From Thermoleophilia bacterium (lineage in GTDB: Bacteria; Actinomycetota; Thermoleophilia; UBA2241): 64,000 bases of DNA. The first letter of the stretch is position 1. Every line of letters starts with the position of its first letter. The notes under the pieces were generated by a model, which was given only the letters and a program-made list of their open reading frames with translations, was not told where the DNA came from and made no database searches. The translations under genes were made by a program, and so were the position numbers. This document shows positions 1-61,653 of this stretch, in pieces. The stretch is taken from NCBI GenBank assembly GCA_035686425.1, contig DASRZL010000154.1, positions 954-64,953 of the forward strand, given 5' to 3'.

Positions 1-161
1 CCGACGAAGCACAGCTGCAGACGTGCGTCGCTCGCGGGATCGAGACCTGGGCAGCCGGAGGGCACCTGCCCCGGGCCGACCTCGTCGCAGGCGTGACGTG
101 CGGAGGTCGCGAAGGCATACACGGTCGTATCTCCCGGGCGCTTCAGGCGCCAGCCGGTCGC

Positions 162-1415
162 TCAGGCGTCGCCGGCGACGATCTCGCGTCGCAGCAGCAC
201 CAGCTCGTCGGCGAGCCAGTCTGCTCGCGCGCGCCGCATCTCCACGCCGGCCTCGCGCAGCACGTAGCTCGGCCCCTTGTTGACGTTGCGCACAGTGATC
301 AGTACGTCGATGCCATGCCCGACGAGCCATTCGGCCACGAGGATCCCCTTCTGCTTCTCGAGTGCGCGATGCGGGTTCTCGAGGATCTCCTGCCGCAGCA
401 CCCGACCGTCGGCCGTGCTGACCTCGGCGAGGCCGAAGTGGGGGGCCTCGCCGAACTCGTTGCCGATTGCGCCGTCGGGCGAAGCAAGGGGCAGCGCCAA
501 GCGGAGGATGTCGCGGCGGCGGGGCTCCAGATGAAGGTTCACCCGTTCCACGGCAGGGACCGCAACGCGGATCTGGGCCTCCAGGTCCTCGCTGACCGCA
601 TGCGCCTTGACGAGGTCGTCAGTGCGCAGGCGCAGGCTGGCCTCGACGAACACGTAGCGCCCGGCGTTGCGCACCGCCCGTCCGTCGACGTGTTCGACGA
701 GTGCTTCCGCCGTCAGGATCGTGTCGACGCGGGCGAGCGTCCCGGCGTCGACCGATGCGTCCAACAGGACCCTCATGCCGCTCACCAGCAGCCCCCAGCC
801 GGAGTAGACGGCGAACCCGAGGATCACGAGGGCGCCCGCGCGGTCTATGTTGAAACCGGCGTAGGTGGACACGACCGCGACCAGCGCGACGGCCGTCGAT
901 ACCACGTCAGTCTGGCGATGTTTGCCGTCCGCCACCAGGGCCGGCGACGAAACGCGCTTGCCCAGCCTCGTCGCGTACCAGCCGTAGGCCCACGTCGCCG
1001 CGATCGTGACCACGACACCGGCGATGACCAAGGGGTCGATGCTGGGTGTTGGTCGGCCGCTCACGAAAGCCTCCCGCGCGATCTCATACGAGGCGATGAA
1101 GATGAGCAGCGCTATGGCTACCTGCAGGAGGTTCTCGATCTTGTAGAGGCCGTAGGGGAAGGCGGTGGTCTTACGCTCCGAGAGCCTGAGGCCGAGCCAC
1201 AGCGCCAGCGCTGCCGCCACGTCGACCACACAGTCCACCGCCGTCGCAGTGAGCGCGAAGCTATGAGAGACCGCGGCGATGGTCACGGTCAAGGTCACCA
1301 GGGCCACGCTCACCAAGACACCCCATGTCGCGACCCGCGCCACCGCGTGACCCACGGCGGCGCGGTCGCCGTCCGCTCGACCGCCGGCGCGGGTCTCCCT
1401 CGTCGCCGGCCCGCT
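162..1415 (-). CDS. Cation diffusion facilitator (CDF) family metal transporter with a C-terminal NifX/NafY-like (dinitrogenase FeMo-cofactor family) domain. Alternative start at 1445.
   Basis: The ORF contains the CDF signature region (SHSFALTATAVDCVVD ... AFPYGLYKIENL) and six predicted TM helices. The C-terminal about 100 aa (GILVAEWLVGHGIDVLITVRNVNKGPSYVLREAGVEM) resembles the NifB/NifX/NafY family. GAGGTGG lies 8 nt upstream of the ATG at 1415. The first 115 codons of the long ORF are Arg-rich off-composition and are excluded. Confidence 0.7.
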   Translation of the reverse strand, partial: SGPATRETRAGGRADGDRAAVGHAVARVATWGVLVSVALVTLTVTIAAVSHSFALTATAVDCVVDVAAALALWLGLRLSERKTTAFPYGLYKIENLLQVAIALLIFIASYEIAREAFVSGRPTPSIDPLVIAGVVVTIAATWAYGWYATRLGKRVSSPALVADGKHRQTDVVSTAVALVAVVSTYAGFNIDRAGALVILGFAVYSGWGLLVSGMRVLLDASVDAGTLARVDTILTAEALVEHVDGRAVRNAGRYVFVEASLRLRTDDLVKAHAVSEDLEAQIRVAVPAVERVNLHLEPRRRDILRLALPLASPDGAIGNEFGEAPHFGLAEVSTADGRVLRQEILENPHRALEKQKGILVAEWLVGHGIDVLITVRNVNKGPSYVLREAGVEMRRARADWLADELVLLRREIVAGDA

Positions 1416-1639
1416 CATCGCCGCAGCCACCTCGGACGGCCACATGCGGGTGACCTGGACACATGGGACATCGCGCACCTCCAGTCCGTCGACTGTACTC
1501 CCGCCGCTGCACGTCGTGCCACTGCATCGGCGAGCGGGCCAGGAGCTGCTACGCGAGCGGCTGCTGCGGGCGTTCGCCCCGGTCGTGACGGGGTCTGAGC
1601 TGAGGCTGGCGTGGTCATGCCGGTGAGTGCGGGGAGAAG

Positions 1640-1670
1640 GAAGAGGGCCGCCCTTGGGGCGGCCCTCTTC
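1640..1670. terminator. GC-rich hairpin: perfect inverted repeat GAAGAGGGCCGCCC-TTGG-GGCGGCCCTCTTC. It lies between the convergent 3' end of the peroxiredoxin gene and the CDF gene start. No U-tract.
   Basis: A perfect 13-14 bp stem with a 4 nt loop is read directly from the sequence. It sits about 35 nt downstream of the Prx stop at 1703. Confidence 0.45.
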
Positions 1671-1702
1671 CTCGTGTCGAAGTCGGTGATCAACAAGGCA
1701 GA

Positions 1703-2314
1703 CTACTCGTCGTCCCTCGGCTGCCAGACCTCCCACACGCGTCCGACCAGGTCCGGTCCGGGCTTGAGCACCTTCTTGCCTGGCTCCCATCCGGAGGGCG
1801 TGACCTCCTTCCCCCCGGTGGCGCGCACGTGCTGGAACGCCTTGATCTGCCGCAGCGTCTCCGCGATCTTGCGACCGACGGGCGGGACGAGCACTTCCAT
1901 GGCCTGGATCACGCCGTCTGGGTCGATGATGAACCGGCCACGGATGTCGACGCCGGCCTCAGCGTCGTAAACACCGTAGGCGCTGCCCAGATGGCCCGCC
2001 GCGTCGGCGAGCATCGGGAAGGGCACGCCGCCCTCCGTCATCTTCGCGAGCTCGTTCTCATCCCACATCTTGTGGACGAACTGCGAATCCACGCTGGCCG
2101 ACAGCACTTCGGCGCCCAGCGCCTGGAACTCGTCGTACTTCTCGGCGACCGCCGAGATCTCGGTCGGTCACACGAAGGTGAAATCACCCGGGTAGAAGCA
2201 GAGGACCACCCACTTGCCCAGCAGGTCCGAGAGCTTGACCTGGGTGAAGACGCCCTTGTGGTAGGCGGGCGCGACGAAGTCCGGCGCCTTGCGGCCGACC
2301 ATGATGGTACTCAC
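1703..2314 (-). CDS. Typical 2-Cys-type peroxiredoxin (AhpC/Prx1 family) with an in-frame UGA (2168-2170) at the peroxidatic-Cys position. This is a candidate selenocysteine peroxiredoxin (PrxU-like). The resolving Cys is replaced by Thr.
   Basis: Two track ORFs (2168-2419 and 1703-2107) are in the same frame. They are separated only by the TGA at 2168-2170. Read-through gives ...[45 protein letters not shown].... This is the canonical Prx active-site motif with U in place of Cp. The C-terminal motif is KEVTPSGW instead of EVCPAGW. GTG at 2314 is preceded by AAGGAGA; the in-frame ATG is at 2302. Confidence 0.75.
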
Positions 2315-2552
2315 GCTCGTCTCCTTCGGTTCGCTGGCCTGTGCGTCGTCCTTCTTCGCCGGCTGCTCGCCGACGAGAGAGCCTGTAGGACGGGCACACC
2401 CGACGTCAGTTTCTTCCATGCCTTGCGCACCTCCCGTTTGTCGCTCGTTTGCGGGACCTGTGCTGCCGCAGTCTGTGCGCCGCCACGGACCTCAGCGGGA
2501 GCTCAGCACCGGTTCGAAAGGCCGCCTTTTGTGGGCCGCCGGCAGTTCCGCC

Positions 2553-2621
2553 GGGCAGGTCCTTCATGCCGTGGGTCGTCTTGACCGTTATCTCGGGGAA
2601 CCTGGCGCCCGGGAGCGGCAT
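2553..2621 (-). other. Short remnant resembling the N-terminus of a Prx6-type (1-Cys) peroxiredoxin (MPLPGARFPEITVKTTHGMKDLP). Similarity ends after about 23 codons.
   Basis: Translation of the minus strand from the ATG at 2621 matches the characteristic FPEhxVxTTHGKhKLPD start of 1-Cys Prx proteins. All three downstream frames lose similarity. Confidence 0.25.
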
Positions 2622-2912
2622 GTTCGGGGCGTATCCGTCGTCTGACACGAGGATCTCCTTCGCTGGTCCTTCGTGGTCCAACTGGAGGCCGCAGACTCAC
2701 AGGGCCACATTGCGATGCCGCCTGTTATGAGCGTATGCTCAGATCTACTCGTGAGTCAAGAATGCGGGCAGCGGTCGTTGCGCCGGCTGCGCCTCGCTGG
2801 GCTGGAGCGGGCGAGCTCGCCTGGGCCACGATCGGGCGCGAATGGAGATCGCGATACTGGGCAGGAAGCCGGAGACGGGCCGGGCCGTCACGGTGGACAA
2901 GGATGGGAGACG

Positions 2913-3275
2913 ATGAGCGTGCCTGACTTTGACGACTGGATCAGCGATGTGAAGTCGCAGCCGGGATCAGCTGCGATCGGCATGATTCTGGCCCACCAAG
3001 GCATCGTGCGTGGAACGTCCCGGTCGGGCGGACTCGTGAGGGGGATGACCCTCCGCACCGACGCCGGCCGGCTTGACGAGGCGCTCGCCGAGGCCGCGAC
3101 GTGGCCGGGCGTCTTCGCCGTGCGCGGCTGGGCCAACGAGGGGGAACTCTCGGTCGGCGACGACATCATGAAGGTGCTCGTCGCCGGCGACATCCGCGAG
3201 CACGTCTTCGCGGCCCTCCAGAGACTCGTGTCCCTGATGAAGACGGAGGTGCTGATGGAGTCGGAGCTGACCTGA
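2913..3275 (+). CDS. MoaE-like protein (molybdopterin synthase catalytic-subunit family), short form of 120 aa.
   Basis: The alignable motifs are GMILAHQGIVRG and WPGVFAVRGWANEGELSVGDDIMKVLVAGDIREHVFAALQRLVSLMK. They align to the MoaE GxVTFTGxVR and HRxGELxxGDxIVxVxVxSxHRxxAFxAxxxxMDxLK blocks. GGATGGGAG lies 4 nt upstream of the ATG. Confidence 0.45.
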   Translation: MSVPDFDDWISDVKSQPGSAAIGMILAHQGIVRGTSRSGGLVRGMTLRTDAGRLDEALAEAATWPGVFAVRGWANEGELSVGDDIMKVLVAGDIREHVFAALQRLVSLMKTEVLMESELT

Positions 3276-3346
3276 GACCTACGGCGCGGTCGTCTGTGGG
3301 AGAGGCTCCGCGCCCACGCCTCGTTCATTCCCGGGAGAGGAGCGAC

Positions 3347-3997
3347 ATGTACACGTGTGCCGAGTGTGGTCGTGTGTCCTGCGCTACCGGCGACGCAGCG
3401 TCCTACCCGCGCAACTGCCCGTCGCGCGAGTCATTCGAAGCGGAGGCGCTCGACCAGTATCGCGAAGGGGAAGACGGGCACCTGGCGCGAAACGCCGCCC
3501 TGGTGGAGGCGCAAGGGTACTGCCGGCTGACGCGCGTGGAGGAAATCATGGACTTCGCCCGCCGCTGCGGCTACTCGAAGCTGGGCCTCGCCTTCTGCAT
3601 CGGTCTTCAGGCCGAGGCCGCAGTCACCAGTCGGGTGCTCAGGGCGAACGGCTTCTCGGTCGACTCGGTGGCCTGCAAGAACGGCAGCCTCCCCAAGGAG
3701 GAGCTGGGTCTGGGTGACGAGGACAAAGTCACCCGGGGCGAGTTCGAAGGGATGTGTAACCCGATCGGCCAGGCGCGGGCCCTGGATCATGCCGGGACCG
3801 AGCTCAACCTGCTGCTCGGTCTGTGCGTCGGCCACGACAGCCTGTTCATGAAGCACTCAGTGGCTCCGGTGACCGTGCTGGCCGCCAAGGACAGAGTGCT
3901 GGGCCACAACCCGCTGGCGGCGATCTACATGGCGGACGGCTACTACTGTGACAAGCTGTTCCCGAAGGCGGACGACGCGGAGGGGGGCTGCGCCTGA
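3347..3997 (+). CDS. DUF1847-family Cys-rich metal-binding protein.
   Basis: The N-terminal MYTCAECGRVSCATGDAASYPRNCPS start and overall length are typical of DUF1847. A strong RBS (GGGAGAGGAG) is present. The first 82 codons of the track ORF are rejected as an Arg-rich upstream extension. Confidence 0.6.
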   Translation: MYTCAECGRVSCATGDAASYPRNCPSRESFEAEALDQYREGEDGHLARNAALVEAQGYCRLTRVEEIMDFARRCGYSKLGLAFCIGLQAEAAVTSRVLRANGFSVDSVACKNGSLPKEELGLGDEDKVTRGEFEGMCNPIGQARALDHAGTELNLLLGLCVGHDSLFMKHSVAPVTVLAAKDRVLGHNPLAAIYMADGYYCDKLFPKADDAEGGCA

Positions 3998-4043
3998 CTC
4001 GCTCTCCGGCCAGACCGGCCGCGCGCTGCCTGCGCCGGCCTGT

Positions 4044-4556
4044 CTATTTCGCGTGGTCGCGGTGCTCGCCGCGCCGCCGGAACGTCGTGTCGCTGACCCG
4101 GTCCGTCCAGCCGCCTCGTGTGTCCACGCGCAGGTCGAACTTCTCGACGTAGGGTTTGATATCGAGGAGCGGCGTGCCGTCAAGTATGTCGAGGTCCTCG
4201 ACCACGAGCACGTTCCCGCGCCGCTCCACCAGGCGCACGAGGCTCAGGCCGAGCGGGTTGGGACGCACGGGGGTCCGCGTCGCGAAGACGCCTCGGGGCA
4301 CGTCGTCCAGATAGGGGACGACCTTCAGCGGCGACGGGCCGGCGACCGAACTCACTACTTCGCCGGCCCGGTGCAGCCAGTAGATCAGGTGCAGGTGCGA
4401 GAAGCCCTCGATGTCATCGAGGGCGTCGGCGAACTGCGGGAAGATCTCGACCCAGCCGCGGCTGCCTTGAGCGCAGACCGGCTGGATTGGCGTGCGCGCA
4501 TGCTCGCGATGCTCGCTGTAGATGGTCCCTATCGGCTCGAGGATGAGCCTCTCCAT
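4044..4556 (-). CDS. TsaA/TrmO-like (YaeB family) tRNA methyltransferase.
   Basis: Family-typical blocks MERLILEPIGTIYSEHREHARTPIQP and ...PNPLGLSLVRLVERRGNVLVVEDLDILDGTPLLDIKPY are present. The start is placed at the internal ATG (4556) where similarity begins. Confidence 0.65.
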   Translation of the reverse strand: MERLILEPIGTIYSEHREHARTPIQPVCAQGSRGWVEIFPQFADALDDIEGFSHLHLIYWLHRAGEVVSSVAGPSPLKVVPYLDDVPRGVFATRTPVRPNPLGLSLVRLVERRGNVLVVEDLDILDGTPLLDIKPYVEKFDLRVDTRGGWTDRVSDTTFRRRGEHRDHAK

Positions 4557-4730
4557 GCGCACCTCCCACGTGGCTGCGGCAAAGCATACTCCGACGTGAG
4601 GACCCGCGCGGCCATGACGATGGGGCTTCGCGATCGAGTCGGAGCCCTTCGCTCGTATCGCGGGCTCGCTCTGCAGCTGAAGGAAGGGGCCGGCGGACTC
4701 GAGGACGGCGACGCCCCTCCACAACAGGAA

Positions 4731-4763
4731 CGGCCCGCGACCGTCTGAGACGGTCGCGGGCCG
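4731..4763. terminator. Strong GC hairpin (15 bp perfect stem CGGCCCGCGACCGTC / GACGGTCGCGGGCCG, loop TGA) about 90 nt downstream of the qmoC-like gene.
   Basis: The perfect inverted repeat is read directly. It sits at the 3' end of the seven-gene minus-strand cluster. Confidence 0.5.
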
Positions 4764-4853
4764 CTGTGCCGGGCGTCCCGTCGTCGCGAGTCCCGTCCCG
4801 GGTGGGATCCGCGAGGGCGGCCGCGTCCTTGCAGGCGCGGCCGCCCGCCGGGG

Positions 4854-5993
4854 TCAGGCCGCCTCGGCGGCCTTCTGCCCCGTGGCCGCCTCAGTCTCCT
4901 CGGCATGGACCTTCACGCGCGAGAAGTAGAGGGCCAGCGGCCGGTAGGCGAGGTGCGCCCACTTACCGAACGGCACCTCGAGGACCAGCATCGGGACGAT
5001 GCCCATGAGGTGGATGATGTACATCGCGTTCGCCGCCGCATCGAACCCCAGACGATGCAGGGCCGTCTGCAGCACGCCGGTGACGGCCACGTAGAGCAGC
5101 AGGTACAGGAACATCCAGTCGCTCTCGTGTGAGTGCGCGTGCTGCGGCGCGTCCTTCTTGAGGCGGCCGCGGATGTTCAGGATCACTGCGGCGATGAGGC
5201 CGATCGAGGCGAGGTAGCCGAACGCGTGCACCCGCCAGTCGATCTCCGGCCCGGCCTGCATGTAGCGCAGGAAGAACATGATGAGCACGAGCATGGTGAC
5301 GTAGCTCAGCATGAGCACCATGTGGACTGCCCACGGGCGTTTGCGATCGCACCTGCGCATCTTCGTCTGGGTGAAGAACTGGTAGGGCAACTGAGGCAGG
5401 GCGGCGAGATAGGAGCCGATCCCGGCCCCCGAGCCGCCCATGACGTTGCGCCACATGCGGAGCACGTTGATGCCCAGCAGGCCGACGAGGATGATCGCCA
5501 TCCCCCAGTCGAAGCGATGGACGTAGTGGCTCGGCAGGAAGGCGTTCTCGCCGTCGTAGACGCTGAAGCTCCCACCGTTCAAGATGCCGAACGCCACGAA
5601 CCCGATGCCGGTGAGGATCGCCGCGATGACGATAGCGATGATCTCCCAGGCGGGCGAGCGGTAGAACAAGCCGCTGAGGCCGCTGAAGTCGTACTTGGCC
5701 GTGAGCCAGCGGCGCATGCTCATCATGGTCTCGGCGGGGTCGGCCTCCTTGGGGCACTGCTCCGAGCACTCACCGCAGTAGTAGCAGAGCCAGGGCTCGA
5801 TATCGCCCTTGAGCTTGTCTTCGAGTCCGACCTGCACGGCGTGCAAGGGGCGGCGCGGGAGGATGTAGTCACCTTCGGAGTGCACGCACACGGCCGAGCA
5901 GTTCCCGCAGTTGAAGCACTTGTCGATGTCGGTCGCGCCGTACTCGTGGAGCTCGTCGGCGAGCCCCGGTTTGATCTGTATCGCCATCGTCAC
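4854..5993 (-). CDS. QmoC-like membrane subunit: an N-terminal HdrC-like domain with two 4Fe-4S clusters fused to an HdrE/NarI-like b-type cytochrome membrane domain.
   Basis: The N-terminus carries CFNCGNCSAVC and CYYCGECSEQC cluster motifs. These are followed by 5-6 hydrophobic helices with conserved His residues (SHYVHRF, WAVHMV, RVHAFG, YIIHLM, KWAHLA). That pattern is typical of di-heme NarI/HdrE anchors. Confidence 0.75.
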   Translation of the reverse strand: MTMAIQIKPGLADELHEYGATDIDKCFNCGNCSAVCVHSEGDYILPRRPLHAVQVGLEDKLKGDIEPWLCYYCGECSEQCPKEADPAETMMSMRRWLTAKYDFSGLSGLFYRSPAWEIIAIVIAAILTGIGFVAFGILNGGSFSVYDGENAFLPSHYVHRFDWGMAIILVGLLGINVLRMWRNVMGGSGAGIGSYLAALPQLPYQFFTQTKMRRCDRKRPWAVHMVLMLSYVTMLVLIMFFLRYMQAGPEIDWRVHAFGYLASIGLIAAVILNIRGRLKKDAPQHAHSHESDWMFLYLLLYVAVTGVLQTALHRLGFDAAANAMYIIHLMGIVPMLVLEVPFGKWAHLAYRPLALYFSRVKVHAEETEAATGQKAAEAA

Positions 5994-5998
5994 TCCAC

Positions 5999-6487
5999 CT
6001 AGATGAACAGGTTGACGTTGGCTTCATCGGCCTTGCCCAGATAGGCGGCGACGCCCTCGAACTCGATGTCGTCGATGAGCTCCTCCTCGGTGAAGCCGAG
6101 GATCTCCATCGACAGCGTGCAGGCGACGAACTTGACGTCCATCTCCCTGGCGCTGTCGAAGAGCTCCTCGAGCGACATGCCGCCGGCATCCTTCGTGGCC
6201 TTCCTCATCATGGGGCTGCCGGCGCCGGCGAAGTTCATCTTGGAAAGGCCGAGCTTCTTCGTGCCCTTGGGCATCATGCCGCCGAACATCTTCTGGAGGG
6301 TGCTCTTCTTGCCGTTCCCGTTCGACTTCACCTTCTCGGTCTTGCGCAGGATGTTGAGCCCCCAGAAGGTGCAGAAGATGGTGACGTCGTCGCCCATGGC
6401 GGCGGCGCCGTTGGCGATGATCAGGGCCGCCATGACCTTGTCGAAGTCGCCGCTGAACAGAATGATGGTCTTCTTGCTGGTATCCAT
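5999..6487 (-). CDS. DsrE/DsrF-like (DsrE2-type) sulfur-relay protein.
   Basis: The TIILFSGDFDKVMAALIIANGAAAMGDDVTIFCTFWGL ... VKFVACTLSMEIL blocks match the DsrE/TusD fold family. GAGAGGAA lies 6 nt upstream of the ATG at 6487. The start overlaps the upstream stop (TGATG). Confidence 0.7.
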   Translation of the reverse strand: MDTSKKTIILFSGDFDKVMAALIIANGAAAMGDDVTIFCTFWGLNILRKTEKVKSNGNGKKSTLQKMFGGMMPKGTKKLGLSKMNFAGAGSPMMRKATKDAGGMSLEELFDSAREMDVKFVACTLSMEILGFTEEELIDDIEFEGVAAYLGKADEANVNLFI

Positions 6488-6759
6488 CACGATTCCTCTC
6501 GTGGGACCGCTTGATAGGGGAAGTAGCCGTCGTCGTCGACCTCTTTGATCTCCGCGATCCAGCCGTACTTGCGCAGGCCCATCACCCAGAAGACGACCTC
6601 TCGGCTGGGCCTGCCCAGCGCCTCGGCTATCTGGGGAATGGTCAGCGGGCCGGACTCGAGCGCCTTGAGGATCCGGCCCCTCATGAACTGCTCATCGCGG
6701 ATGATCTCGCGGACGTCGCGGGGACGTGCCTCGAGCTGTGCCGTGTCGGTCGTGCTCAT
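6487..6759 (-). CDS. Small (90 aa) winged-helix-like protein of unknown function inside the cluster. Possibly a regulatory or assembly factor.
   Basis: The translation is MSTTDTAQLEARPRDVREIIRDEQFMRGRILKALESGPLTIPQIAEALGRPSREVVFWVMGLRKYGWIAEIKE. It is coupled at both ends: ATGA with the upstream gene and TGATG with the downstream gene. The first 69 codons of the track ORF are antisense junk. Confidence 0.5.
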   Translation of the reverse strand: MSTTDTAQLEARPRDVREIIRDEQFMRGRILKALESGPLTIPQIAEALGRPSREVVFWVMGLRKYGWIAEIKEVDDDGYFPYQAVPREES

Positions 6760-8498
6760 ACGCACACCACCTCCAGCATGCCGTCGATCATCGCCTTGAT
6801 CTGGGCGTCGGTGTAGCCCTGCAGGTCGATCGCGTCCGACGGGCAGACGGGGACGCAGCCGCCGCAGCCCTTGCAGGCGGTGCGGGAGATCGTCGCGATC
6901 TCCTTGCCGCCCTCCTCTACCTTGGCGATGGCGTCGTAGGGACAGGTGAACTCGCAGGCGCCGCACCAGGTGCAGGCGTCGGCGTCGACGGTGGCGACGA
7001 GCGGGTCGAGCTCGGCGTAGCCGCGCTTGAGGATAGCGGCGCTCTGGGTCACCGCGGCGAGCCCGGAGGCAACCGACTCGGACGAGGTCTTGGGACTTTG
7101 GCAGGCGCCGCAGATGTAGGCGCCGTCCACGACCGTCTCGACCGGGCGCAGCTTGGGGTGGATCTCGTTGTAGAAGCCGCTCTGACCCACCGGCAGCTTG
7201 AGCGTCTTGGTCAGTCCCTCGTTCTCCCGTGGCACCATGCCGGTGACCAGGACGACCAGGTCGGCGGCGAGCGCGACCTCCTCGCCCTCTGACAGGAGGT
7301 CGCGGGCCGTCACCGTGACGCCGCCGGACTTCGCGTCCTTCTCGACCGCCGGCGGCTCGTCGTCGGGGAACTTGACGAACGCAGAGCCCTTCTCGAGCGC
7401 ATCGGCGTACAGAAGTTCGTACTTCCCGTAGGTCCGCATATCGCGGTAGAAGTGGTACTGGTGGACGCGCCCGGGCCGGGCATCGACCTGGGTCGCCGCG
7501 TGCACGGCTGCCGTGCAGCAGTAGCGCGAGCAGTAGGTGTTGGCGCCCTCCACGCTCTCGTTCTGGCGGCTGCCCACGCAGTAGATGTAAGCGACCGTCT
7601 TGACGGGCCGGCCGTTGTACTTGAGCGGCCCATCCGTCTCGTCGAGGAGCTTCTTGAAGTCGGCGATGGTGACGACGCCGTCGATGCCGTAGCCGAGCTC
7701 GCCCTCCTCCGGCTTGTAGGTATCGAAGCCGGTGGCGATGACGATGGAGCCCACGTCGACGGTGATCGTCTCGAGGCGCTCGCCGTTCGTGACGGCGATC
7801 GTCGCCTCGTAGTTGCCGAAGCTGCCGCTCTTGGCGACCAGCTCCGCGCTCGTGAACACGGTGATCGCCGGGTGCGAGCGCACCTTCTTCTCGAGCTTCG
7901 CTATCAGCTCGCGGCCGTTGCGGCCCTGCGGGAACATCTCGCGGAAGCCTGCGACCCAGCCGCCGAGCCTGGCCTCCTTCTCCGCGAGGAACACGTGGAG
8001 GCCGACCTCGGCGAGGCCGAGGGCGGCGCGCAGGCCTGCGACCCCGCCGCCCACCACGAGGCTCTTCGGCGTCGTCTCGACGACGATCGGCTCGAGCGGG
8101 TCGGTGAGGCGCGTGCGGTTGATGCCGGCGCGGACGAGCCGCACCGCCTTGTCGGTCGCGCCCTCATGGTCGTCGGTGTGCGTCCACGAGCACTGCTCGC
8201 GCACGTTCACCTGCGTGTACTGAAACGGGTTCATGCCCGCGCGCTTGGCGACGTCGCGGAACGTGAAGGTGTGGAGCTTGGGCGAGCAGGAGGCGATGAC
8301 GAGCCCGTCCAGGCCCTGCTCGCGCGCATCCTCGATGATCTCGGTCTGGGTCGCGTCCGAGCAGGTGAACATGGCCGTCTTTGCCACAGTGACTCCCTGC
8401 TCCTTCTCGACCTCGGCGACGACCTCGTTCACGTCGACGTAGTCGCCGATGTTGCCGCCGCATTGGCAGACGTAGACACCGATCTTGTCGGCGCTCAT
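6756..8498 (-). CDS. Fusion flavoprotein: an N-terminal MvhD-like domain, an HdrA-like FAD/FeS core and a C-terminal 2x[4Fe-4S] ferredoxin domain. It is QmoB-like but with the MvhD module at the N-terminus.
   Basis: The MvhD-like block is IGVYVCQCGGNIG...FTCSDATQ...DGLVIASCSPKLHTF...REQCSW. The FAD fingerprint is LVVGGGVAGLRAALGLAE. The HdrA signature is YCVGSRQNESVEGANTYCSRYCC. The C-terminal ferredoxin motifs are CTWCGACEFTCP and CKGCGGCVPVCP. Confidence 0.8.
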   Translation of the reverse strand: MSADKIGVYVCQCGGNIGDYVDVNEVVAEVEKEQGVTVAKTAMFTCSDATQTEIIEDAREQGLDGLVIASCSPKLHTFTFRDVAKRAGMNPFQYTQVNVREQCSWTHTDDHEGATDKAVRLVRAGINRTRLTDPLEPIVVETTPKSLVVGGGVAGLRAALGLAEVGLHVFLAEKEARLGGWVAGFREMFPQGRNGRELIAKLEKKVRSHPAITVFTSAELVAKSGSFGNYEATIAVTNGERLETITVDVGSIVIATGFDTYKPEEGELGYGIDGVVTIADFKKLLDETDGPLKYNGRPVKTVAYIYCVGSRQNESVEGANTYCSRYCCTAAVHAATQVDARPGRVHQYHFYRDMRTYGKYELLYADALEKGSAFVKFPDDEPPAVEKDAKSGGVTVTARDLLSEGEEVALAADLVVLVTGMVPRENEGLTKTLKLPVGQSGFYNEIHPKLRPVETVVDGAYICGACQSPKTSSESVASGLAAVTQSAAILKRGYAELDPLVATVDADACTWCGACEFTCPYDAIAKVEEGGKEIATISRTACKGCGGCVPVCPSDAIDLQGYTDAQIKAMIDGMLEVVCV

Positions 8499-21079: not shown

Positions 21080-22063
21080 CTACATGATCGAATCGCCCGC
21101 CGGCACGTAGCGGTCCAGGCGGGCGAAGGGCCGTGAGGCGCACAGCAGGCCCGCCGCTCCCTCGAACGCGAACCCGGCCTCCCAGAGAACGCGCTGGGCG
21201 GCGAGGTTCGGTCCCGGGACGACGACGGTCGCCCGTTCCTCCCCCCGCGCGGCGAGCTCGGCCACGACGAAGCGCAAGGCCGCGGCCTGGTCGCCGGGGC
21301 GCAGGGTGGCTACGGGGCCGACGGAGCCGGGACCTTCGGTCTCGTCGCCGCCCAGATAGCCGTAGCCGATCGGCCGGCCCCGCCGGCGGAACAGCCAGCC
21401 GGGGTGCCCCGGCCGGCTCAGGAACCAGAGATGGTCGGGGGTGCGGTCGAATCCGAGGGCTACCTCGTCGATGGCGCGGAGCTCGCCGACGTGCTCCGCT
21501 TCGAGAGGCTCCACATCGAGGCTGCGTGCGTGGCTGGCGGGTGGTCCGCCGGCCGCCGCCGCCGGCCCGCTGAGGACCAGCAGCGCATGCTGGGGATAGA
21601 TGCCGTGGCGTGCGTACAACCGGTTGGAGACGGGATTGGCGGCGCCGGAAGTGAGCGCCGTGACTCCGCCGGTGACCGGCAGACCCTCGAGCGCGGTCTC
21701 GAACAGCCGCCGCCCGAGTCCCCGCCCCTGCCACTCCGGCAGCACGAAGAGCCCGGCGCAGTAGGAGAACGCGCCCCGCACGAGACCGGCGCCGAACCCG
21801 ACCGGTCGTTCGCGGTCGTACGCCAGCACGAAACGGGCGCCGTCTGTCTCGATGACGTGGCGCAGGATGGGCGCGGCGTGGTCTTCCGGCTCCGTGAACG
21901 GGGGCAGTCCTTGCTTCCTCGCCAGATCCTTGAGAGCGACGGTGATGATCCGGGAGGCGGCTTCTGGGGCGTCGCGCTTCCCGCCGTCATCCATGTCCAC
22001 GGCTCGTTGGATCACCAGGCTCTGGGCGGTCTTGCGACTCCACCGGCCTTCTGCGGCGCTCAT
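21080..22063 (-). CDS. GNAT-family N-acetyltransferase with two GNAT-like halves (MshD-like architecture). Alternative start at 21994.
   Basis: The two acetyl-CoA-binding-like blocks are VLPEWQGRGLGRRLFE in the first half and RVLWEAGF in the second half. Confidence 0.65.
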   Translation of the reverse strand: MSAAEGRWSRKTAQSLVIQRAVDMDDGGKRDAPEAASRIITVALKDLARKQGLPPFTEPEDHAAPILRHVIETDGARFVLAYDRERPVGFGAGLVRGAFSYCAGLFVLPEWQGRGLGRRLFETALEGLPVTGGVTALTSGAANPVSNRLYARHGIYPQHALLVLSGPAAAAGGPPASHARSLDVEPLEAEHVGELRAIDEVALGFDRTPDHLWFLSRPGHPGWLFRRRGRPIGYGYLGGDETEGPGSVGPVATLRPGDQAAALRFVVAELAARGEERATVVVPGPNLAAQRVLWEAGFAFEGAAGLLCASRPFARLDRYVPAGDSIM

Positions 22064-22259
22064 GCGATCTCCAGTCGACGATGCAAGACGACGATGGCGG
22101 ACGAGGCGATTCTATCTGCCGCTGCCCAGCCGCGGTCTGGGCTGCGGACCCTATCGCCGGCCCGTGAGCCAGCGCTTCGCTCCCGGCCGGCTCGTTTGGC
22201 CGCGGCGCCACGGGGAATCCGGAAGGAGACGCCCGCCGAGGCGTCCGGAAGGAGACCCC

Positions 22260-22832
22260 ATGAGCGAGAGCCCCACTCGTCAGCTCGCCGCCGAGCACGA
22301 GTACGTCAAGCTGGTGGTGGGCGCGATGGAGGCGGAGGCCGCCTTCATCGAACGCACCGGCCGCATCCACGAGGAGCGCGTGATCCAGATGGTCGACTTC
22401 ACGCGTAACTTCACCGACGGCGACCATCACACCAAGGAGGAGGACCTTCTCTTCCCGCTGCTCGAGGAGCGGAGTGCTGCCGCAGGCGGCACCATCAGCG
22501 TCCTGTTGAGCGAGCACCAGGCGGCACGTGACTGCATCCGCGCGATCGATGCAGCGCTGCCCGAGGTGGCCGACCCCGACCCGGACCGCAGCGGGCCCGC
22601 TCGTGCCGTCATCGCCGAGAACCTGAAGCTCTATGCCAATCTGCTGCCGCTGCACATCGGCAAGGAGGACACCGTGCTCTTCCCGCTGACCGAACAGGTG
22701 CTCAGTGTCCGGGAGCAGGAGATGCTCGGCGAGGAGTTCACGCGTCTCTCGGCAGTTCCGGGGAGAGCCGCGACGGCCGAGCGCTACCACCACCTCGCGC
22801 ACGAGCTGTCTACGCCGCCGGTCGACGGCTGA
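22260..22832 (+). CDS. Hemerythrin HHE cation-binding domain protein.
   Basis: The H...E/H..D spacing is repeated (HEYVKL...HEERV...HHTKEED; SEHQAARD...HIGKEDTVLFP). A GGAAGGAGA RBS lies 4 nt upstream of the ATG. Confidence 0.65.
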   Translation: MSESPTRQLAAEHEYVKLVVGAMEAEAAFIERTGRIHEERVIQMVDFTRNFTDGDHHTKEEDLLFPLLEERSAAAGGTISVLLSEHQAARDCIRAIDAALPEVADPDPDRSGPARAVIAENLKLYANLLPLHIGKEDTVLFPLTEQVLSVREQEMLGEEFTRLSAVPGRAATAERYHHLAHELSTPPVDG

Positions 22833-31421: not shown

Positions 31422-31436
31422 TCCAGGGAGGTCCCT

Positions 31437-31889
31437 GTGAACGTCAATGACAAGGACGACGCCGAGCTGCGGGAGAAGCTCACCCCCATGCAGTACAACG
31501 TGACCCAGCGTGAGGGCACCGAGGCCCCGTTCGCCAACGAGTATTGGAACGAGCACCGTGACGGCATCTATGTGGACGTGGTCAGTGGCGAGCCCCTGTT
31601 CAGCAGCCGTGACAAGTACGACTCCGGCACGGGGTGGCCGAGCTTCACGAGGCCGCTGCGTGACGAGTTCGTGACCACGCGGGAGGACCACAAGCTCTTC
31701 AGCACGCGCACCGAGGTCCGCAGCACGGCGAGCGATTCGCACCTCGGCCACGTCTTCCCTGATGGCCCCAAGCCGACGGGGCAGCGCTTCTGCATGAACT
31801 CGGCGGCGTTGCGTTTCGTGCCTCGGGAGGACCTCGGCGCGGAGGGCTACGGCGAGTACGCGGCTCTGTTCGGCGACGAGGAGAAGTAG
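31437..31889 (+). CDS. msrB: Peptide-methionine (R)-S-oxide reductase MsrB. It lacks the Zn-binding CxxC pairs.
   Basis: The SelR blocks are [44 protein letters not shown] ... [24 protein letters not shown] with the catalytic Cys in RFCMNS. GGAGG lies 6 nt before the GTG start. Confidence 0.85.
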
Positions 31890-48424: not shown

Positions 48425-51106
48425 CTACGCCGTGACCCGGCAGCCGCAGACCTTGAACTCGGGGATCTTGGCCATCGGGTCTCGCGCCGTGTTGGTGAGC
48501 CGGTTGGCCGGCGCCTCCCAGAAGTGGAAGGGCACGAACACCGTGCCGGGCCGGACCCTCGACGTCACATTGGCGGGAGTCTTGATCGTCCCGCGCCGGG
48601 TCTCGACCGTCACCTCGACGCCATGGGTGACGCCGAGGCGCGCGGCGTCGTCGGGATGCACCTCGACGAAGCCCGTCGGGACGAGCTCGTTGAGCCCATC
48701 GGAGCGGCGCGTCATCGTCCCGGTGTGGTAGTGCTCCAGCATGCGCCCCGTCGTCAGCGTGAGGGGGTAGTCGTCGTCCGCGACCTCGTCCGGGGACTGG
48801 TAGGCAACGGGGAAGAACTTGCCCTTGCCGCGCGTGAACCGACCGATGTGGAGGATCGGCGTGCCGGGGTGCTCCGTGTCCGGGCACGGCCAGCAGATGC
48901 CGCCGTTCTCGTCCAGCCGGTCCCAGGTGATGCCGGCGTAGGATGGGGTGAGCTCGTTGATCTCATCCAGGATGTCCTGCGGGTCGCGGTAGTCCCAGCC
49001 GCCCGCGGCGCCCATTCGCCGTGCGAGGTCGACGATGATCTCCCAGTCCGGCCGGGCCTCGCCGGGACTCGGGACGGCGGCGCGCACGCGCTGCACCTTG
49101 CGCTCGGTGTTGGTGAAGGTGCCGTCCTTCTCGGCGAAGCTCGCCGCCGGCAACACCACATCGGCGAGCTGCGCCGTCTCGCTCAGGAAGATGTCCTGGA
49201 CGACGAGGAAATCAAGACCGCGGAAGGCTTCCTCGACGTGGGTCAGGTCCGGGTCGGACAGCAGCGGGTTCTCGCCGACCACGTACAGTCCCCTGAGGGT
49301 GCCGGCTTGCATGCCGTCGACGACCTCGGTGACGGTGAGCCCGGGCTTGTCCGGCAGGGTGACGCCCCAGGCCGTGTTGAAGCGCTCCTGTGCGGCGGCG
49401 TCTCCGACCGACTGGTAGCCGGTGTAGACGTTGGGGAGCGCGCCCATATCGCACGCCCCCTGGACGTTGTTCTGGCCGCGCAGTGGATTGACGCCGACGC
49501 CGGCGCGCCCGAGGTTGCCGGTCATGAGCGCCAGGTTGCTGAGAGAGATCACGTGCTCGGTGCCGTGAGAATGCTGCGTGACGCCCATGGAGTAGAAGAT
49601 GGCGCCCTTGGCGGCGGTCGCGAAGATCCTCGCCGCCTCCCGGATCTTGTCCGCCGGCACGCCGGAGATCTGCTCGACGAACTCCGGCGTGTACGTCGCC
49701 AGCACCTCGGGCAGCTCGTCGAAGTCTTCGGTGCGCTCGGCGATAAAGTCCGTGTCGGTGAGGCCTTCTTCGATGATGACGTGCATGAGGCCGTTGACGA
49801 CGGCGACGTTGGTGCCGGGCAGGAGCTGCAGGTGGATGTCCGCTCGCCGCGCCATGTCGATGCGGCGGGGATCGACGACGATCAGCTTGGCGCCCTTGCG
49901 CATCGCCTTCTTGATGTGCAGCGCGCCGATCGGGTGCGCCTCGCTCGTGTTGGACCCGATGATGAGGACGGCGTCGGCGTCCTCGAGGTCCTTGAAGGAA
50001 TTGGTCATGGCACCGCTGCCGAGCGACTGGAGCAGGCCGGTGACGGTGCTCGCGTGACAGAGGCGCGCGCAGTGGTCGACGTTCTGCGTGCCGAGGACGG
50101 CGCGCACGAACTTCTGGAACACGTAGTTGTCTTCGTTGGTGCAGCGCGCGGACGAGAATCCGGCGAGCGCGTCGGGGCCGTGCTCGGCCTTGATGGCGCC
50201 GAGCTTCTCGACCACGAGGCCCAGCGCCTCGTCCCATGTGGCCGGCACGAGCTCTCCGTCCTTGCGCACCAGCGGCTGCGTGAGGCGGTCGGGATGGCCG
50301 ATGAACTGGAAGCCATAGCGACCCTTGACGCACAGGTTGCCCTCACCGGCGCCCAGGCCCACTGGCGACGATATCTGGACGACCTTCCCGTCCTTGACGT
50401 GCAGGTCGAGGGTGCAGCCGCAGCCGCAGAAGGGGCAGACGCTGCGTACGACCTGGGCGTCCCAGACGCGGCACTGCTGGCGGCTGAGCTTGTCTTGCAG
50501 CGCCCCCGTGGGGCAAGTGCTCACGCAGTTGCCGCACATCTCGCAGGCGGTGTCGAGCATGGAGCGCCCGAACGAGGTGGTGATGTACGAATCGAAGCCG
50601 CGCTCGGCAACATCGAGCACATGACAGCCCTGGACTTCCTGGCACATGGCGACGCAACGACCGCAAAGGATGCACTTGCCGGGATCGTACGCGATGAACG
50701 GCGTGTCTTCGCGGGTGTCGTAGGCGCGCTTCTCGCCGGCGTAGGTCGTCTCGGGGACGTCGTAGCGGTACGCCATCTCCTGCAGGCGGCAGCCACCCGC
50801 CTGATCGCAGACGATGCAGTCGTTGTGGTGGTCGCTGAGAAGCAGGTCGATGAGGGTCCGGCGCTGCTCGGCGAGATCCTCGGTCTCGGTGGTGACCACC
50901 ATGCCGTCGCGGACTTCGGTGTCGCAGGCCACGAGTGGCGTCCGCGCGCCCTCGACCTCCACGAGGCACAGGCGGCAGGCGGCGATAGGATCGAGCCTGT
51001 CGTCCTGGCAGAGGGTCGGAATGTCGATGCCGGCGCCGCGCGCCGCCTGCAAGATCGTCGTACCGGGTTCGGCGGCCACCTGCCGCCCGTCGATGCTGAG
51101 CTCCAC
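48425..51106 (-). CDS. fdhA: Formate dehydrogenase catalytic (alpha) subunit. It belongs to the Mo/W-bisPGD family and has an N-terminal NuoG-like 2Fe-2S plus 4Fe-4S extension. It is a Cys-type enzyme, not a selenocysteine enzyme.
   Basis: The ferredoxin-like N-terminal domain is followed by the Mo-bisPGD 4Fe-4S motif RSVCPFCGCGC. The active-site block NVDHCARLCHASTV has Cys where E. coli FdhF has Sec. The track ORF starts at a TTG. The preferred start is the GTG at 51106, 6 nt after GAGGAGA. Confidence 0.85.
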   Translation of the reverse strand: MELSIDGRQVAAEPGTTILQAARGAGIDIPTLCQDDRLDPIAACRLCLVEVEGARTPLVACDTEVRDGMVVTTETEDLAEQRRTLIDLLLSDHHNDCIVCDQAGGCRLQEMAYRYDVPETTYAGEKRAYDTREDTPFIAYDPGKCILCGRCVAMCQEVQGCHVLDVAERGFDSYITTSFGRSMLDTACEMCGNCVSTCPTGALQDKLSRQQCRVWDAQVVRSVCPFCGCGCTLDLHVKDGKVVQISSPVGLGAGEGNLCVKGRYGFQFIGHPDRLTQPLVRKDGELVPATWDEALGLVVEKLGAIKAEHGPDALAGFSSARCTNEDNYVFQKFVRAVLGTQNVDHCARLCHASTVTGLLQSLGSGAMTNSFKDLEDADAVLIIGSNTSEAHPIGALHIKKAMRKGAKLIVVDPRRIDMARRADIHLQLLPGTNVAVVNGLMHVIIEEGLTDTDFIAERTEDFDELPEVLATYTPEFVEQISGVPADKIREAARIFATAAKGAIFYSMGVTQHSHGTEHVISLSNLALMTGNLGRAGVGVNPLRGQNNVQGACDMGALPNVYTGYQSVGDAAAQERFNTAWGVTLPDKPGLTVTEVVDGMQAGTLRGLYVVGENPLLSDPDLTHVEEAFRGLDFLVVQDIFLSETAQLADVVLPAASFAEKDGTFTNTERKVQRVRAAVPSPGEARPDWEIIVDLARRMGAAGGWDYRDPQDILDEINELTPSYAGITWDRLDENGGICWPCPDTEHPGTPILHIGRFTRGKGKFFPVAYQSPDEVADDDYPLTLTTGRMLEHYHTGTMTRRSDGLNELVPTGFVEVHPDDAARLGVTHGVEVTVETRRGTIKTPANVTSRVRPGTVFVPFHFWEAPANRLTNTARDPMAKIPEFKVCGCRVTA

Positions 51107-51195
51107 TGCGCGTCTCCTCGGTGATCGCTTCCGCGCGTCCAGATGAGCCAAGTGTACTCGCGCGTCAAGCGCGACGGAAACTGCGCCGCCCGCCC

Positions 51196-52317
51196 TCAGT
51201 ACTCCCGCAGCGCGTCCAGCCGCACGGCGAGGAAGCGCGCGAGGCCGGCGCCGTCCTCGAGCCCGAAGCGGTGCTCGTGCTCGAGCTCGGCGTCGGTGAC
51301 CAGGGCGAGCGCCTCACCCGGGGCGCAGAGCGGCTCGGTGTGCCCGGCGCCGGCGCGGAAGAGTTCGACGCGGTGCGGGGCGCTGCGCTTGTAGCCCTCG
51401 GCGACGACCAGGTCGAAGCCGGCGAAGAAGCGGCGCGCGATCGCGGTGAGCTCCAGCTCCTCGTCGAGGCGGGTGATGAAGGCGAGCCGCTCGGGTGAGG
51501 CGATGGCGTAGGCGCTGGCCCCGGCGCGTCCGTGCCGCCAGGAGTCCTTGCCGGGGTGGTCGATCTCGAAGGAGTGGGCGTCGTGCTTGACGGTGCCGAC
51601 GCGCAGCCCCAGGCGCACCAGCTCGGGGACGAGCTTCTCGATCAGCGTCGTTTTGCCGGCGTCGCTCTTGCCGACGACGGCGACCAGGGCCGGCTGGGCG
51701 GCCGCCGCGGGCGCGCCCTGCGCCCGGGCCTCGCGCTGCGCCTCCCGGAAGTCGTCCATGGTGTTGATGTTACGAAAGCGCGCCTCGTCTGGGAAGGGCA
51801 CCTCGACGGTACGGACCGCGGGCAGGATGTGGACGATGCGGTGGCGGCCGGCGTCGAGCACGGCGGCCATCGGCACCAGGCAGGCGGGGCCGTAGGCCGC
51901 GAACAGAGGCTGATGGAACTGCCCTCCGATGGCCGGCAGGGCGGCGTCGTGACCAGGAAAGGCGGCGAGGACCCTCAGGGCCGACTCCCTGTCCGGCCGC
52001 GCGATGTCGACGGCGAGCGCGAACACCGGCTCGTGGAAGTGCCGCAGGGCGGTCGCGATGCCGGCGAGCGGCGAGCCCGTTGGCCAGGCATCGTGGAGTA
52101 TCACATCCGCGCGCGCGTCGCCGAGATCGATGTCCTGGTCGTGGCCGAGCACGATCGCGACGCGTGGGAAGAGCTCGCGCAGAAAGGCGAGGTTGCGCAG
52201 CAGCAGCGTGCGGCCCTCGATCACGAGGAAGCGCTTGTCGATGCCGGCGCGGCGGCTGCTGCCGCCGGCGACGAGGACACCGACGTCGATCTGCGGAGTT
52301 CCAGGCGGCTCGGTCAT
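51196..52317 (-). CDS. MobA-MobB fusion. It combines molybdenum cofactor guanylyltransferase with the MGD-biosynthesis adapter/GTPase-like domain.
   Basis: The N-terminal block VGVLVAGGSSRRAGIDKRFLVIEGRTLL is MobA. The C-terminal block LVAVVGKSDAGKTTLIEKLVPELVRLGLRVGTVKHDAHSFEIDHPGKDSWRH is MobB. Confidence 0.75.
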   Translation of the reverse strand: MTEPPGTPQIDVGVLVAGGSSRRAGIDKRFLVIEGRTLLLRNLAFLRELFPRVAIVLGHDQDIDLGDARADVILHDAWPTGSPLAGIATALRHFHEPVFALAVDIARPDRESALRVLAAFPGHDAALPAIGGQFHQPLFAAYGPACLVPMAAVLDAGRHRIVHILPAVRTVEVPFPDEARFRNINTMDDFREAQREARAQGAPAAAAQPALVAVVGKSDAGKTTLIEKLVPELVRLGLRVGTVKHDAHSFEIDHPGKDSWRHGRAGASAYAIASPERLAFITRLDEELELTAIARRFFAGFDLVVAEGYKRSAPHRVELFRAGAGHTEPLCAPGEALALVTDAELEHEHRFGLEDGAGLARFLAVRLDALREY

Positions 52318-52397
52318 GGTGGAGTCAGTGTACCTGTGGCGAGCAGGCGCGTACCCTGCCGGGCGAACGGCGGTTCAGGCAACTCCCGCGAGTCCGG

Positions 52398-59135: not shown

Positions 59136-59401
59136 GCGGCCGACCGCGGACCTGTGAACGACGCCAGCGCAGCGACACCATCTTCGACCTGCCTTCCGGC
59201 AGCCCGGCGGCCGCGCCCCGCGAGAGCGGGCGCGCGGCCGTCAAGCGCGCCTGCCACGCGACCGGTCGACAGGTCGCCGCCAGCCAACGGCGATCGCCGT
59301 TTCCATTGGTAGCATAGGGGTCCATCCGACGGACCCATCCGAGACCGGGCGCGCCGCCTTCTGCCGGGCCGCGCCCTACGAAAGAGGAGGAGCACGCGAA
59401 C

Positions 59402-59947
59402 ATGACCGAATCCTACAAGAACACGCCGCCGGCACCCGAGGACAAGGGCGCAATGACGGCCGAGAACATCGCCGCCGCGCTGGCCGGCGAGAGCCAAGCC
59501 TCGCAGAAGTACCTGGCGTTCGCCGACGTCGCCGACGCCGAGGGCTACCCGAACGTCGCCCGCCTCTTCCGCGCCGTGGCCTATGCAGAGAGCACGCATG
59601 CCCGCAACCACCTCAGTGTGCTCGGCGGCATCGGCACCACGGCCGAGAACCTCAAGGCGGCCTGGGGCGGCGAGACGTTCGAGATCGACGAGATGTACCC
59701 GGCATACGACGCCGTCGCCGAGCTCCAGGGCAATGAATCTGCGCGCGTGTCGATCAGGTACGCCCTGAAGGCCGAGACGGATCACCAGGACATCTACGAC
59801 ACCACGCTCAAGGGCATCGAGGGCGAGAAGGACCTCGATGATGCCCGCGTCTATGTCTGCCCCATCTGCGGCCACACGGTGATCGGCAAAGCGCCTGCCT
59901 ACTGCACGCAGTGCGGCACCACCGCCGAGTTCTTCAAGGAGTTCTGA
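59402..59947 (+). CDS. Rubrerythrin-family protein: a ferritin-like di-iron domain plus a C-terminal rubredoxin-like CxxC...CxxC.
   Basis: The di-iron ligand helices are E..A...Y, E..H and E..H. The C-terminal motif is CPICGHTVIGKAPAYCTQCG. An AGAGGAGGAG RBS is present. Confidence 0.85.
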   Translation: MTESYKNTPPAPEDKGAMTAENIAAALAGESQASQKYLAFADVADAEGYPNVARLFRAVAYAESTHARNHLSVLGGIGTTAENLKAAWGGETFEIDEMYPAYDAVAELQGNESARVSIRYALKAETDHQDIYDTTLKGIEGEKDLDDARVYVCPICGHTVIGKAPAYCTQCGTTAEFFKEF

Positions 59948-61350: not shown

Positions 61351-61653
61351 GGAGGGTCCTCTCTTCGGGGGGAAGCATCGGCGGCGGCCGTCACCCGGTC
61401 ACGCCGCCTGCGGCGGAGCATAGCCGCGATGGCTGAGCATCCGCTGAAGCGCGGCTGAGAGCAACCTGAGAGCGCGCTTCGGACGGTCTTCAGCATCGGC
61501 GGTCTCGATCGCGTCCTCCCGCCGTGCTGCAGCAGGCCGGAGGTCCCGGCCTGCACCGCCGCGTGCCGTCGCCGCCAGCTCGTAGCGCCCTTTGATACAC
61601 TCGCCCCTGACACGCGCGGGCCTCGCCCGCGACACCGTCAGGAGGTTCCCGAC

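Follow-up and report, generated by a model that had tools for sequence, protein, structure and literature searches.

PrxU, the selenocysteine (Sec) peroxiredoxin of Eubacterium acidaminophilum, was reportedly described in 2001 by Sohling et al. (ref. 83 of PMC13188914). Twelve Sec-containing peroxiredoxins were counted in 2006 (PMC1794560). The family is listed among experimentally verified prokaryotic selenoproteins in PMC13188914, where the motif PxxxTxxU defines it. The gene considered in this study, prxU, lies on the minus strand of a 64,000-nucleotide stretch (hereafter the window) of contig DASRZL010000154.1 (assembly GCA_035686425.1, Thermoleophilia bacterium), and its active-site codon is an in-frame UGA. 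The region directly 3' of this codon is very probably the Sec insertion sequence (SECIS) of prxU. The functional element within it is a hairpin termed H2 (2157..2140, minus strand) and not a second, overlapping hairpin termed H1.

The bacterial SECIS (bSECIS) model used here is the bSECISearch consensus (Zhang and Gladyshev 2005) as summarised in PMC13188914. It has an apical loop of 3-9 nt, an upper stem of 4-16 bp and a G in the first two loop positions, which is usually followed by G or U. The distance from the UGA to the apical loop is 16-37 nt and the minimum free energy (MFE) is -7.5 kcal/mol or lower. In PMC4605307, bacterial SECIS elements are described as having a stem of 6-8 bp, with a conserved G located some 20 nt past the UGA. 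The minimal SECIS of Escherichia coli fdhF comprises nt 15-31 (an upper stem-loop of 17 nt that lies about 11 nt past the UGA) and carries GGUC at 22-25, in which G23 and U24 are essential (PMC8659212). The sequence of this element was confirmed in 5,419 of 5,426 complete E. coli genomes.

The corresponding features of the window are listed below.

1703..2314, minus strand: prxU coding sequence, 203 codons plus a TAG stop (1705..1703), with an in-frame TGA that is read through.
2170..2168, minus strand: the in-frame TGA, the Sec codon at the peroxidatic-Cys position (PGDFTFV-U, PxxxTxxU motif).
2158..2167, minus strand: spacer CCGACCGAGA, 10 nt, single-stranded, between the UGA and the SECIS stem, defined from the sequence and constrained folds.
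2157..2140, minus strand: hairpin H2, UCUCGGC[GGUC]GCCGAGA, with its 5' arm at 2157..2151, loop at 2150..2147 and 3' arm at 2146..2140.
2147..2150, minus strand: GGUC apical loop of H2, positions 21-24 counted from the U of the UGA.
2169..2147, minus strand: alternative hairpin H1, GACCG-A-CCGA[GAUC]UCGG-CGGUC, a non-conserved rival of H2 in free mRNA.

The gene at 2314..1703 (minus strand) encodes a PrxU-type peroxiredoxin. When Cys is substituted at the TGA, its 203 residues match Pfam AhpC-TSA (6.4e-39) and 1-cysPrx_C. The full-length product scores 378.5 bits against NCBIfam NF040737 (peroxi_PrxU), which has a curated equivalog cut-off of 270. Six independent metagenome assemblies, which match the window at 99.7-99.9% identity, carry the TGA and the hairpin unchanged, so the TGA is not a sequencing error. 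The window has a GC content of 69.5%. Most of its open reading frames (ORFs) end in TGA, and TGA is therefore an ordinary, non-reassigned stop codon here. The base directly 3' of the prxU TGA is C (UGA-C), and this C is invariant as part of a Pro codon. An invariant C after the UGA may further disfavour termination.

Gene callers cut prxU into ORFs of 83 and 134 aa, both of which contain AhpC-TSA matches. The annotation of two separate ORFs by automatic callers speaks for a different explanation, in which the TGA genuinely ends translation or arose as an inactivating mutation. The locus would then be either a pseudogene or a pair of small ORFs, with a hairpin that simply results from GC-rich Ala/Val codons. 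Against this stand the match of the full-length product to the curated PrxU equivalog model and the GC content at third codon positions (GC3), which is 0.94 in the 50 codons on either side of the TGA. The distribution of the codon also stands against it. One genome per species was scanned for GAYTTYACNTTYGTN-TGA-CCNACNGA (D-F-T-F-V-UGA-P-T-E), which yielded at least 120 loci in at least 120 species, each with TGA exactly at the catalytic residue and both flanks open in frame. All 121 usable copies of the TGA are in frame and continue as peroxiredoxin on both sides. The taxa represented are Anaerolineae and other Chloroflexota, Desulfobacterota and other 'Deltaproteobacteria', Bacillota, Zixibacteria, Ignavibacteria, Actinomycetota and others. 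Among the matches listed, the nearest PrxU from a species genome is 78% identical and belongs to Desulfovermiculus.

On the mRNA, the sequence after the UGA reads CCGACCGAGAUCUCGGCGGUCGCCGAG. An earlier, sequence-only reading of this DNA had quoted these letters correctly and had taken the UGA to be the Sec codon of a peroxiredoxin, which agrees with its conservation in frame at the peroxidatic position and with an NF040737 score above the cut-off. That reading also expected a hairpin, and a stable one does form (RNAfold, H1, -14.4 kcal/mol). The structure it drew does not hold. It had CGACCG:CGGUCG enclosing the self-complementary CCGAGAUCUCGG; both pairings use C8-C9-G10 and cannot coexist, and the CGACCG:CGGUCG register alone is worth only -8.3 kcal/mol. 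The stem was said to start 4-6 nt past the UGA, and H1 really begins within the UGA, at G2. The pairs of H1 are G2-C24, A3-U23, C4-G22, C5-G21 and G6-C20, followed by a bulged A7, then C8-G19, C9-G18, G10-C17 and A11-U16, closed by the loop GAUC. H1 is the MFE fold of 27-, 51- and 71-nt fragments (z = -3.4 for the 27 nt from the UGA, with 1 of 200 shuffles equally stable). The fold of the 71 nt covered by the earlier reading, taken whole, is not unusual (z = -1.06).

H2 is a perfect 7-bp stem that begins 10 nt past the UGA and is capped by a GGUC tetraloop. It encodes the peptide (I)SAVAE(K). Compared with shuffled sequences it has a z value between about -1.7 and -2.2, and its stability is reached by 6 to 11 shuffles out of 200. 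The MFE structure of a 60-nt context includes H2, and the ensemble shares in these 60 nt are about 0.70 for H1 and 0.30 for H2. In constrained folding, H2 is the sole fold once at least 9 nt from the U of the UGA are forced to be single-stranded. The ribosome would select H2, because it is the only hairpin that forms with these nucleotides unpaired.

The geometry of H2 fits the bacterial SECIS model. Its values fall within all five bSECIS constraints, with a 4-nt loop, a 7-bp stem, the loop sequence GGUC, a 17-nt spacing (positions 4-20) and a free energy of -12.2 kcal/mol. It lies in the coding region directly 3' of the in-frame UGA, as the bSECIS model asks, and its loop G residues are at positions 21-22, which matches the description in PMC4605307. 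The suitably spaced apical loop that the sequence-only reading had proposed to look for among the MFE and suboptimal folds is thus found, in H2, and the outcome that would have spoken against a SECIS did not arise. A comparison with the fdhF element, also suggested there, places H2 in nearly the same positions with an identical GGUC loop. The GGUC element singled out by that reading does matter, as the apical loop of H2; in the hairpin that had been drawn it sits in the 3' arm of the stem. Likewise, a SECIS is present within roughly 30 nt 3' of the UGA, and it is H2 and not H1.

H1 could itself be regarded as the SECIS, with GAUC as its apical loop (2169..2147). It is the MFE fold of three fragment lengths, at the free energy and z value given above, and its loop begins with G. 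The apical loop of H1, however, lies 8 nt past the UGA, which is outside the 16-37 nt of the bSECIS model. H1 also pairs the G and the A of the UGA, two bases that have to be unpaired when the codon occupies the A site. The comparison of family members presented below separates the two hairpins further.

From the window alone, the evidence for H2 is modest, and the family comparison is decisive. Codons of the H2 region were resampled according to the codon usage of the window itself. Among these synonymous recodings, 5% give a hairpin as stable as H2 and 3.9% give the full stem with a GGUC or AGUU loop.

Covariation was assessed in an ungapped 51-nt region around the UGA in 121 sequences, with column shuffles (n=500) and slid 3' partners as controls. 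For H2 together with the pair 21:24, 85.2% of cells are paired, compared with 73.3% in column shuffles. Two-sided changes occur in 138 cells, where 42.7 are expected. The covariation score is 0.380, compared with 0.169 in shuffles and 0.161 or less with slid 3' partners. For each of these three measures, 0 of 500 shuffles reach the observed value. The wobble-wobble pair 18:27 is GC in 76, AU in 27 and GU in 5 of the 121 sequences. The pair 15:30, which likewise links two synonymous positions, is GC in 72, GU in 11, AU in 9 and CG in 7. These two pairs are the most informative ones. The apical loop is GGUC in 53 of 121 sequences and AGUU in 51 (104 of 121 together). The pair 21:24 is accordingly GC in 53 and AU in 51, and its two positions switch together around an invariant G-U. 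With RIBOSUM scoring, RNAalifold recovers exactly the seven H2 pairs, whether it is given all 121 sequences or the 97 of the majority class, and finds no conserved lower helix. An fdhF-like conserved lower helix was considered and set aside; weak lower pairs appear in the 60-nt MFE structure of the window and are absent from the family consensus.

H1 does not share this pattern. Its pairing in the 121 Sec-peroxiredoxin genes is the shuffled expectation (70.7% compared with 70.0%), and its covariation score (0.074 compared with 0.068) shows no real covariation. The variable pairs 5:21, 9:18 and 11:16 are only 29-46% paired, and the complete set of nine pairs is open to just 9% of the family. 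An AGUU loop rules out the outer helix of H1. It is extremely improbable that H1 is the SECIS, and H2 is the preferred element.

Three groups of sequences depart from the majority hairpin. In the '...ISHIAVGY' clade (L061, L077, L113, L114 and L119), the hairpin is shifted 3' (CAUAGCC[GUN]GGCUAUG), with its loop about 24 nt past the UGA. A similarly 3'-shifted hairpin, made of different sequences, is formed by L014, L037 and L120. In the Prx1-like '...I.AFSDR' clade (L004, L074, L076, L079 and L101), the hairpins are unrelated or unclear.

Homologues with Cys at the active site provide a control for the peptide. The control set is made up of 22 metagenome loci encoding F-V-C-P-T-E-L-[AST]-A-V-A, of which 19 sequences are distinct. 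The local free energy (nt 12-34) has a median of -4.1 kcal/mol in the 22 Cys forms and -10.5 kcal/mol in 97 Sec forms with the same peptide (Mann-Whitney, p = 1.4e-6 for all 22 and 3e-5 for the 19 distinct sequences). The loops of the Cys forms are varied (CGUG, GGUG, AGUU and others) rather than GGUC or AGUU. Most Cys homologues with the same peptide lack the H2 hairpin. H2 is conserved with compensatory changes in Sec-peroxiredoxin orthologues and is not required in Cys homologues; it is under purifying and compensatory selection specifically in the Sec forms.

These results also bear on the alternative in which the TGA is a stop. The codons GCN-GCN-GUN-GCN (Ala/Val) pair readily with each other, and the H2 region is still 82% paired when the partner is slid by -3, as a by-product of GC-rich codons would be. 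The lack of visible Sec machinery in the window also speaks for a stop. The covariation, however, falls at synonymous wobble positions and is absent from the slid controls, and most Cys forms with the same peptide have no hairpin. A true stop or inactivating mutation is a highly improbable explanation, and the TGA is best read as the Sec codon of prxU.

In three of the Cys-form peroxiredoxins from metagenomes (L138, L139 and L142), a TGC codon is followed by a perfect H2-type hairpin whose loop is AGUU, at -14.2 to -14.7 kcal/mol. These genes have probably changed from Sec to Cys recently and kept their SECIS as a fossil. For FdhA and HesB-like proteins, Zhang et al. 2006 (PMC1794560) describe such fossil hairpins, which resemble a SECIS and persist in Cys homologues derived from Sec forms. 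L138, L139 and L142 resemble these cases, and the window differs from them in having TGA and not TGC.

The peptide FVCPTEL[AST]AVA with Cys has 22 matches in a large metagenome collection, compared with at least 120 loci of the Sec version in species genomes, although neither the collections nor the patterns allow a strict comparison. The A-V-A sequence that follows the active site appears itself to be kept by the SECIS. The coding peptide (L/I)-(A/S/T)-A-V-A appears to be shaped by the RNA.

The two hairpins could also be seen as a conformational switch actuated by the ribosome, in which H1 hides the UGA and the GGUC loop in idle mRNA and the ribosome exposes H2, tuning SelB occupancy or the efficiency of recoding. 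The two folds are mutually exclusive and nearly isoenergetic, which their 0.70 and 0.30 shares of the ensemble reflect, and only H2 can fold with the ribosome over the 5' arm of H1. If such a switch were real, SelB would be recruited only co-translationally and less SelB and Sec-tRNA would be tied up by untranslated prxU mRNA. H1, however, is neither conserved nor covarying and is missing in 91% of family members. The invariant UGA-CCG and the GGUC loop produce it automatically wherever the Ser codon is UCG. A regulatory switch is very unlikely, and H2 acting as a SECIS of the common type remains the preferred interpretation.

The proposed sequence of events for H2 is as follows. When the UGA is in the A site of the ribosome, the following 10 nt would lie in the mRNA channel, H1 would be melted, and H2 would stand at the channel entrance. 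This channel occupancy is deduced from the SelB/ribosome model in PMC4605307. SelB, with Sec-tRNA(Sec) and GTP, would then use its C-terminal winged-helix domains to bind the G-U at the tip of the GGUC loop. By analogy with the fdhF element, G22-U23 of the H2 loop is the presumed SelB contact. Delivery of Sec-tRNA(Sec) to the UGA would compete with release factor 2 (RF2), and the peroxidatic residue would become selenocysteine. We infer SelB binding, actual Sec insertion and the presence of selA, selB, selC and selD elsewhere in the genome.

Several observations weigh against the assignment of H2 as the SECIS of prxU. Judged on the window alone, H2 has only a marginal advantage over synonymous recodings (5% are equally stable). 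H1, although not conserved, is slightly more stable in free RNA and makes up approximately 70% of the ensemble. H2 is without the bulged U17 of the E. coli fdhF element. With default scoring, RNAalifold predicts no structure on the full, heterogeneous alignment of 121 sequences, because minority clades with different SECIS variants break the consensus; the same scoring on the 97 majority sequences recovers part of H2. No tRNA-Sec, selA, selB or selD is present in the 64-kb window or in approximately 8 kb of flank beyond the window start (six related contigs). Lastly, the FdhA-like gene of the window has Cys (HCARLCHAS) where many formate dehydrogenases have Sec.

ARAGORN finds no tRNA in the window or in 18 related loci, and Pfam scans of about 50 ORFs find no selA, selB or selD. 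A Pfam match to 'SelR' was considered as a gene of the Sec machinery and rejected, as it is MsrB. Sec decoding by this organism would be deduced from the prxU gene itself. No Rfam family reaches the gathering threshold across the whole window, and only chance-level matches are found in 2050..2250 (E up to 10). All TGAs of the 64-kb window were screened on the basis of GC3, and no other convincing in-frame Sec TGA was found. The TGAs at 16325, 22830 and 31419 were rejected as Sec codons; they look like ordinary gene junctions, for example Tag followed by MsrB.

Three further features belong to the prxU gene and its transcript.

2321..2327, minus strand: Shine-Dalgarno-like GAAGGAG, 6 nt 5' of the GTG, seen in the sequence and with a putative function.
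2198..2200, minus strand: TGC codon of Cys39 (U-10, ten residues before the Sec), the sole cysteine of the PrxU protein.
1640..1670, minus strand: perfect 13-bp inverted repeat GAAGAGGGCCGCC-CCAAG-GGCGGCCCUCUUC, GC-rich, with a 5-nt loop, 33 nt past the prxU stop.

The start of prxU is most likely the GTG at 2314..2312, with ATG 2302 and ATG 2419 as alternatives. From its sequence, the inverted repeat at 1640..1670 is a probable transcription terminator, though one without a U-run. A scan for consensus terminators did not report it because the repeat has no T tail. The canonical resolving-Cys position (VCP..W) is Thr in the PrxU protein of the window (VTPSGW). At U-10, Cys is present in 95 of 122 Sec forms (78%) and in the three Cys forms with a fossil SECIS. 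The same position is Tyr in 17 Cys forms that lack the full H2 hairpin. The U-10 Cys could be a non-canonical resolving residue that forms a selenenyl-sulfide.

Between prxU and a MoaE-like gene, an ORF fragment (2550..2624, minus strand) encodes MPLPGARFPEITVKTTHGMKDLPGG. It resembles the N-terminus of a 1-Cys (Prx6-type) peroxiredoxin (NF009670, E = 0.007, residues 5-29 of 215), after which the similarity is lost. This fragment may be the remnant of an older peroxiredoxin gene that was truncated just 5' of prxU.

A conserved gene cluster adjoins prxU at 4854..about 12000 on the minus strand (also at 1..7254 of the related locus L145). It encodes TusA, an FlpD/MvhD-like protein, a 922-aa GltD/HdrA-like flavoprotein and a 580-aa HdrA-like Fe-S flavoprotein. 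It further contains a 90-aa ORF, DrsE_2 and a 377-aa membrane Fe-S (HdrC/E-like) protein. An ArsR regulator is located on one side of the cluster, and TrmO-, DUF1847- and MoaE-like genes lie between the cluster and prxU. The cluster is an Hdr-like sulfur or disulfide redox module. It contains no in-frame TGA. An exact-protein look-up of the neighbouring DrsE_2 ORF gave no match, probably due to a different called start; a look-up of the 134-aa peroxiredoxin fragment did give matches.

Elsewhere in the window, an FdhA/NuoG-like molybdopterin oxidoreductase is encoded at 48425..51313 on the minus strand (Fer2_4, NADH-G_4Fe-4S_3, Molybdopterin and Molydop_binding domains) and is adjoined by a MobA-MobB fusion gene at 51196..52374. 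Genes related to oxidative stress are found on the plus strand (59318..60489, 61459..62103, 31422..31886 and 21765..22829). They comprise two tandem rubrerythrins, a second AhpC/TSA-family protein, MsrB (Pfam 'SelR') and a hemerythrin-domain protein. Such a gene set fits an organism sensitive to oxygen.

Once the UGA and its SECIS are recognised, the 83-aa and 134-aa fragments become one 203-residue selenoenzyme, and a high-GC organism known only from metagenomes is flagged as a probable Sec user. The 121 genes also define the constraints on the PrxU element, which are a 6-8-bp stem, a constant spacing from the UGA and a G-U tip whose closing purine:pyrimidine (R:Y) pair covaries. The current view of bacterial Sec insertion is confirmed and is unchanged by these results.

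In comparison with known systems, the loop of H2 is the tightest version of the bSECIS consensus, N1-G-U-N2, and its closing pairs are only purine:pyrimidine, G:C or A:U. It differs from the generic bSECIS pattern in having one nucleotide fewer between G[G|U] and N2. The H2 and fdhF elements both lie in coding sequence directly 3' of the UGA, as stem-loops at 14-31 (H2) and 15-31 (fdhF). They share an identical GGUC tetraloop, with G22/U23 in H2 corresponding to G23/U24 in fdhF. In both, the lower region, including the UGA, can pair in free RNA and has to be melted by the ribosome. H2 is unlike fdhF in that it is without the bulged U17, which is essential for E. coli SelB. It is a perfect 7-bp helix, whereas fdhF has 6 bp plus a bulge, and its loop is 1 nt nearer the UGA. 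H2 is also without a conserved lower helix and resides in a peroxiredoxin gene, not a formate dehydrogenase gene. By this analogy, H2 is predicted to work like the fdhF element without being of the strict E. coli type. The protein belongs to the PrxU family (NF040737) by its equivalog-level match, and it shares with PrxU the Sec at the peroxidatic position of PxxxTxxU and the absence of a canonical resolving Cys. It differs from the PrxU of E. acidaminophilum in its host, which is a bacterium of 69.5% GC known only from metagenomes. Together, prxU and its SECIS are an ordinary member of the already known PrxU selenoprotein family.

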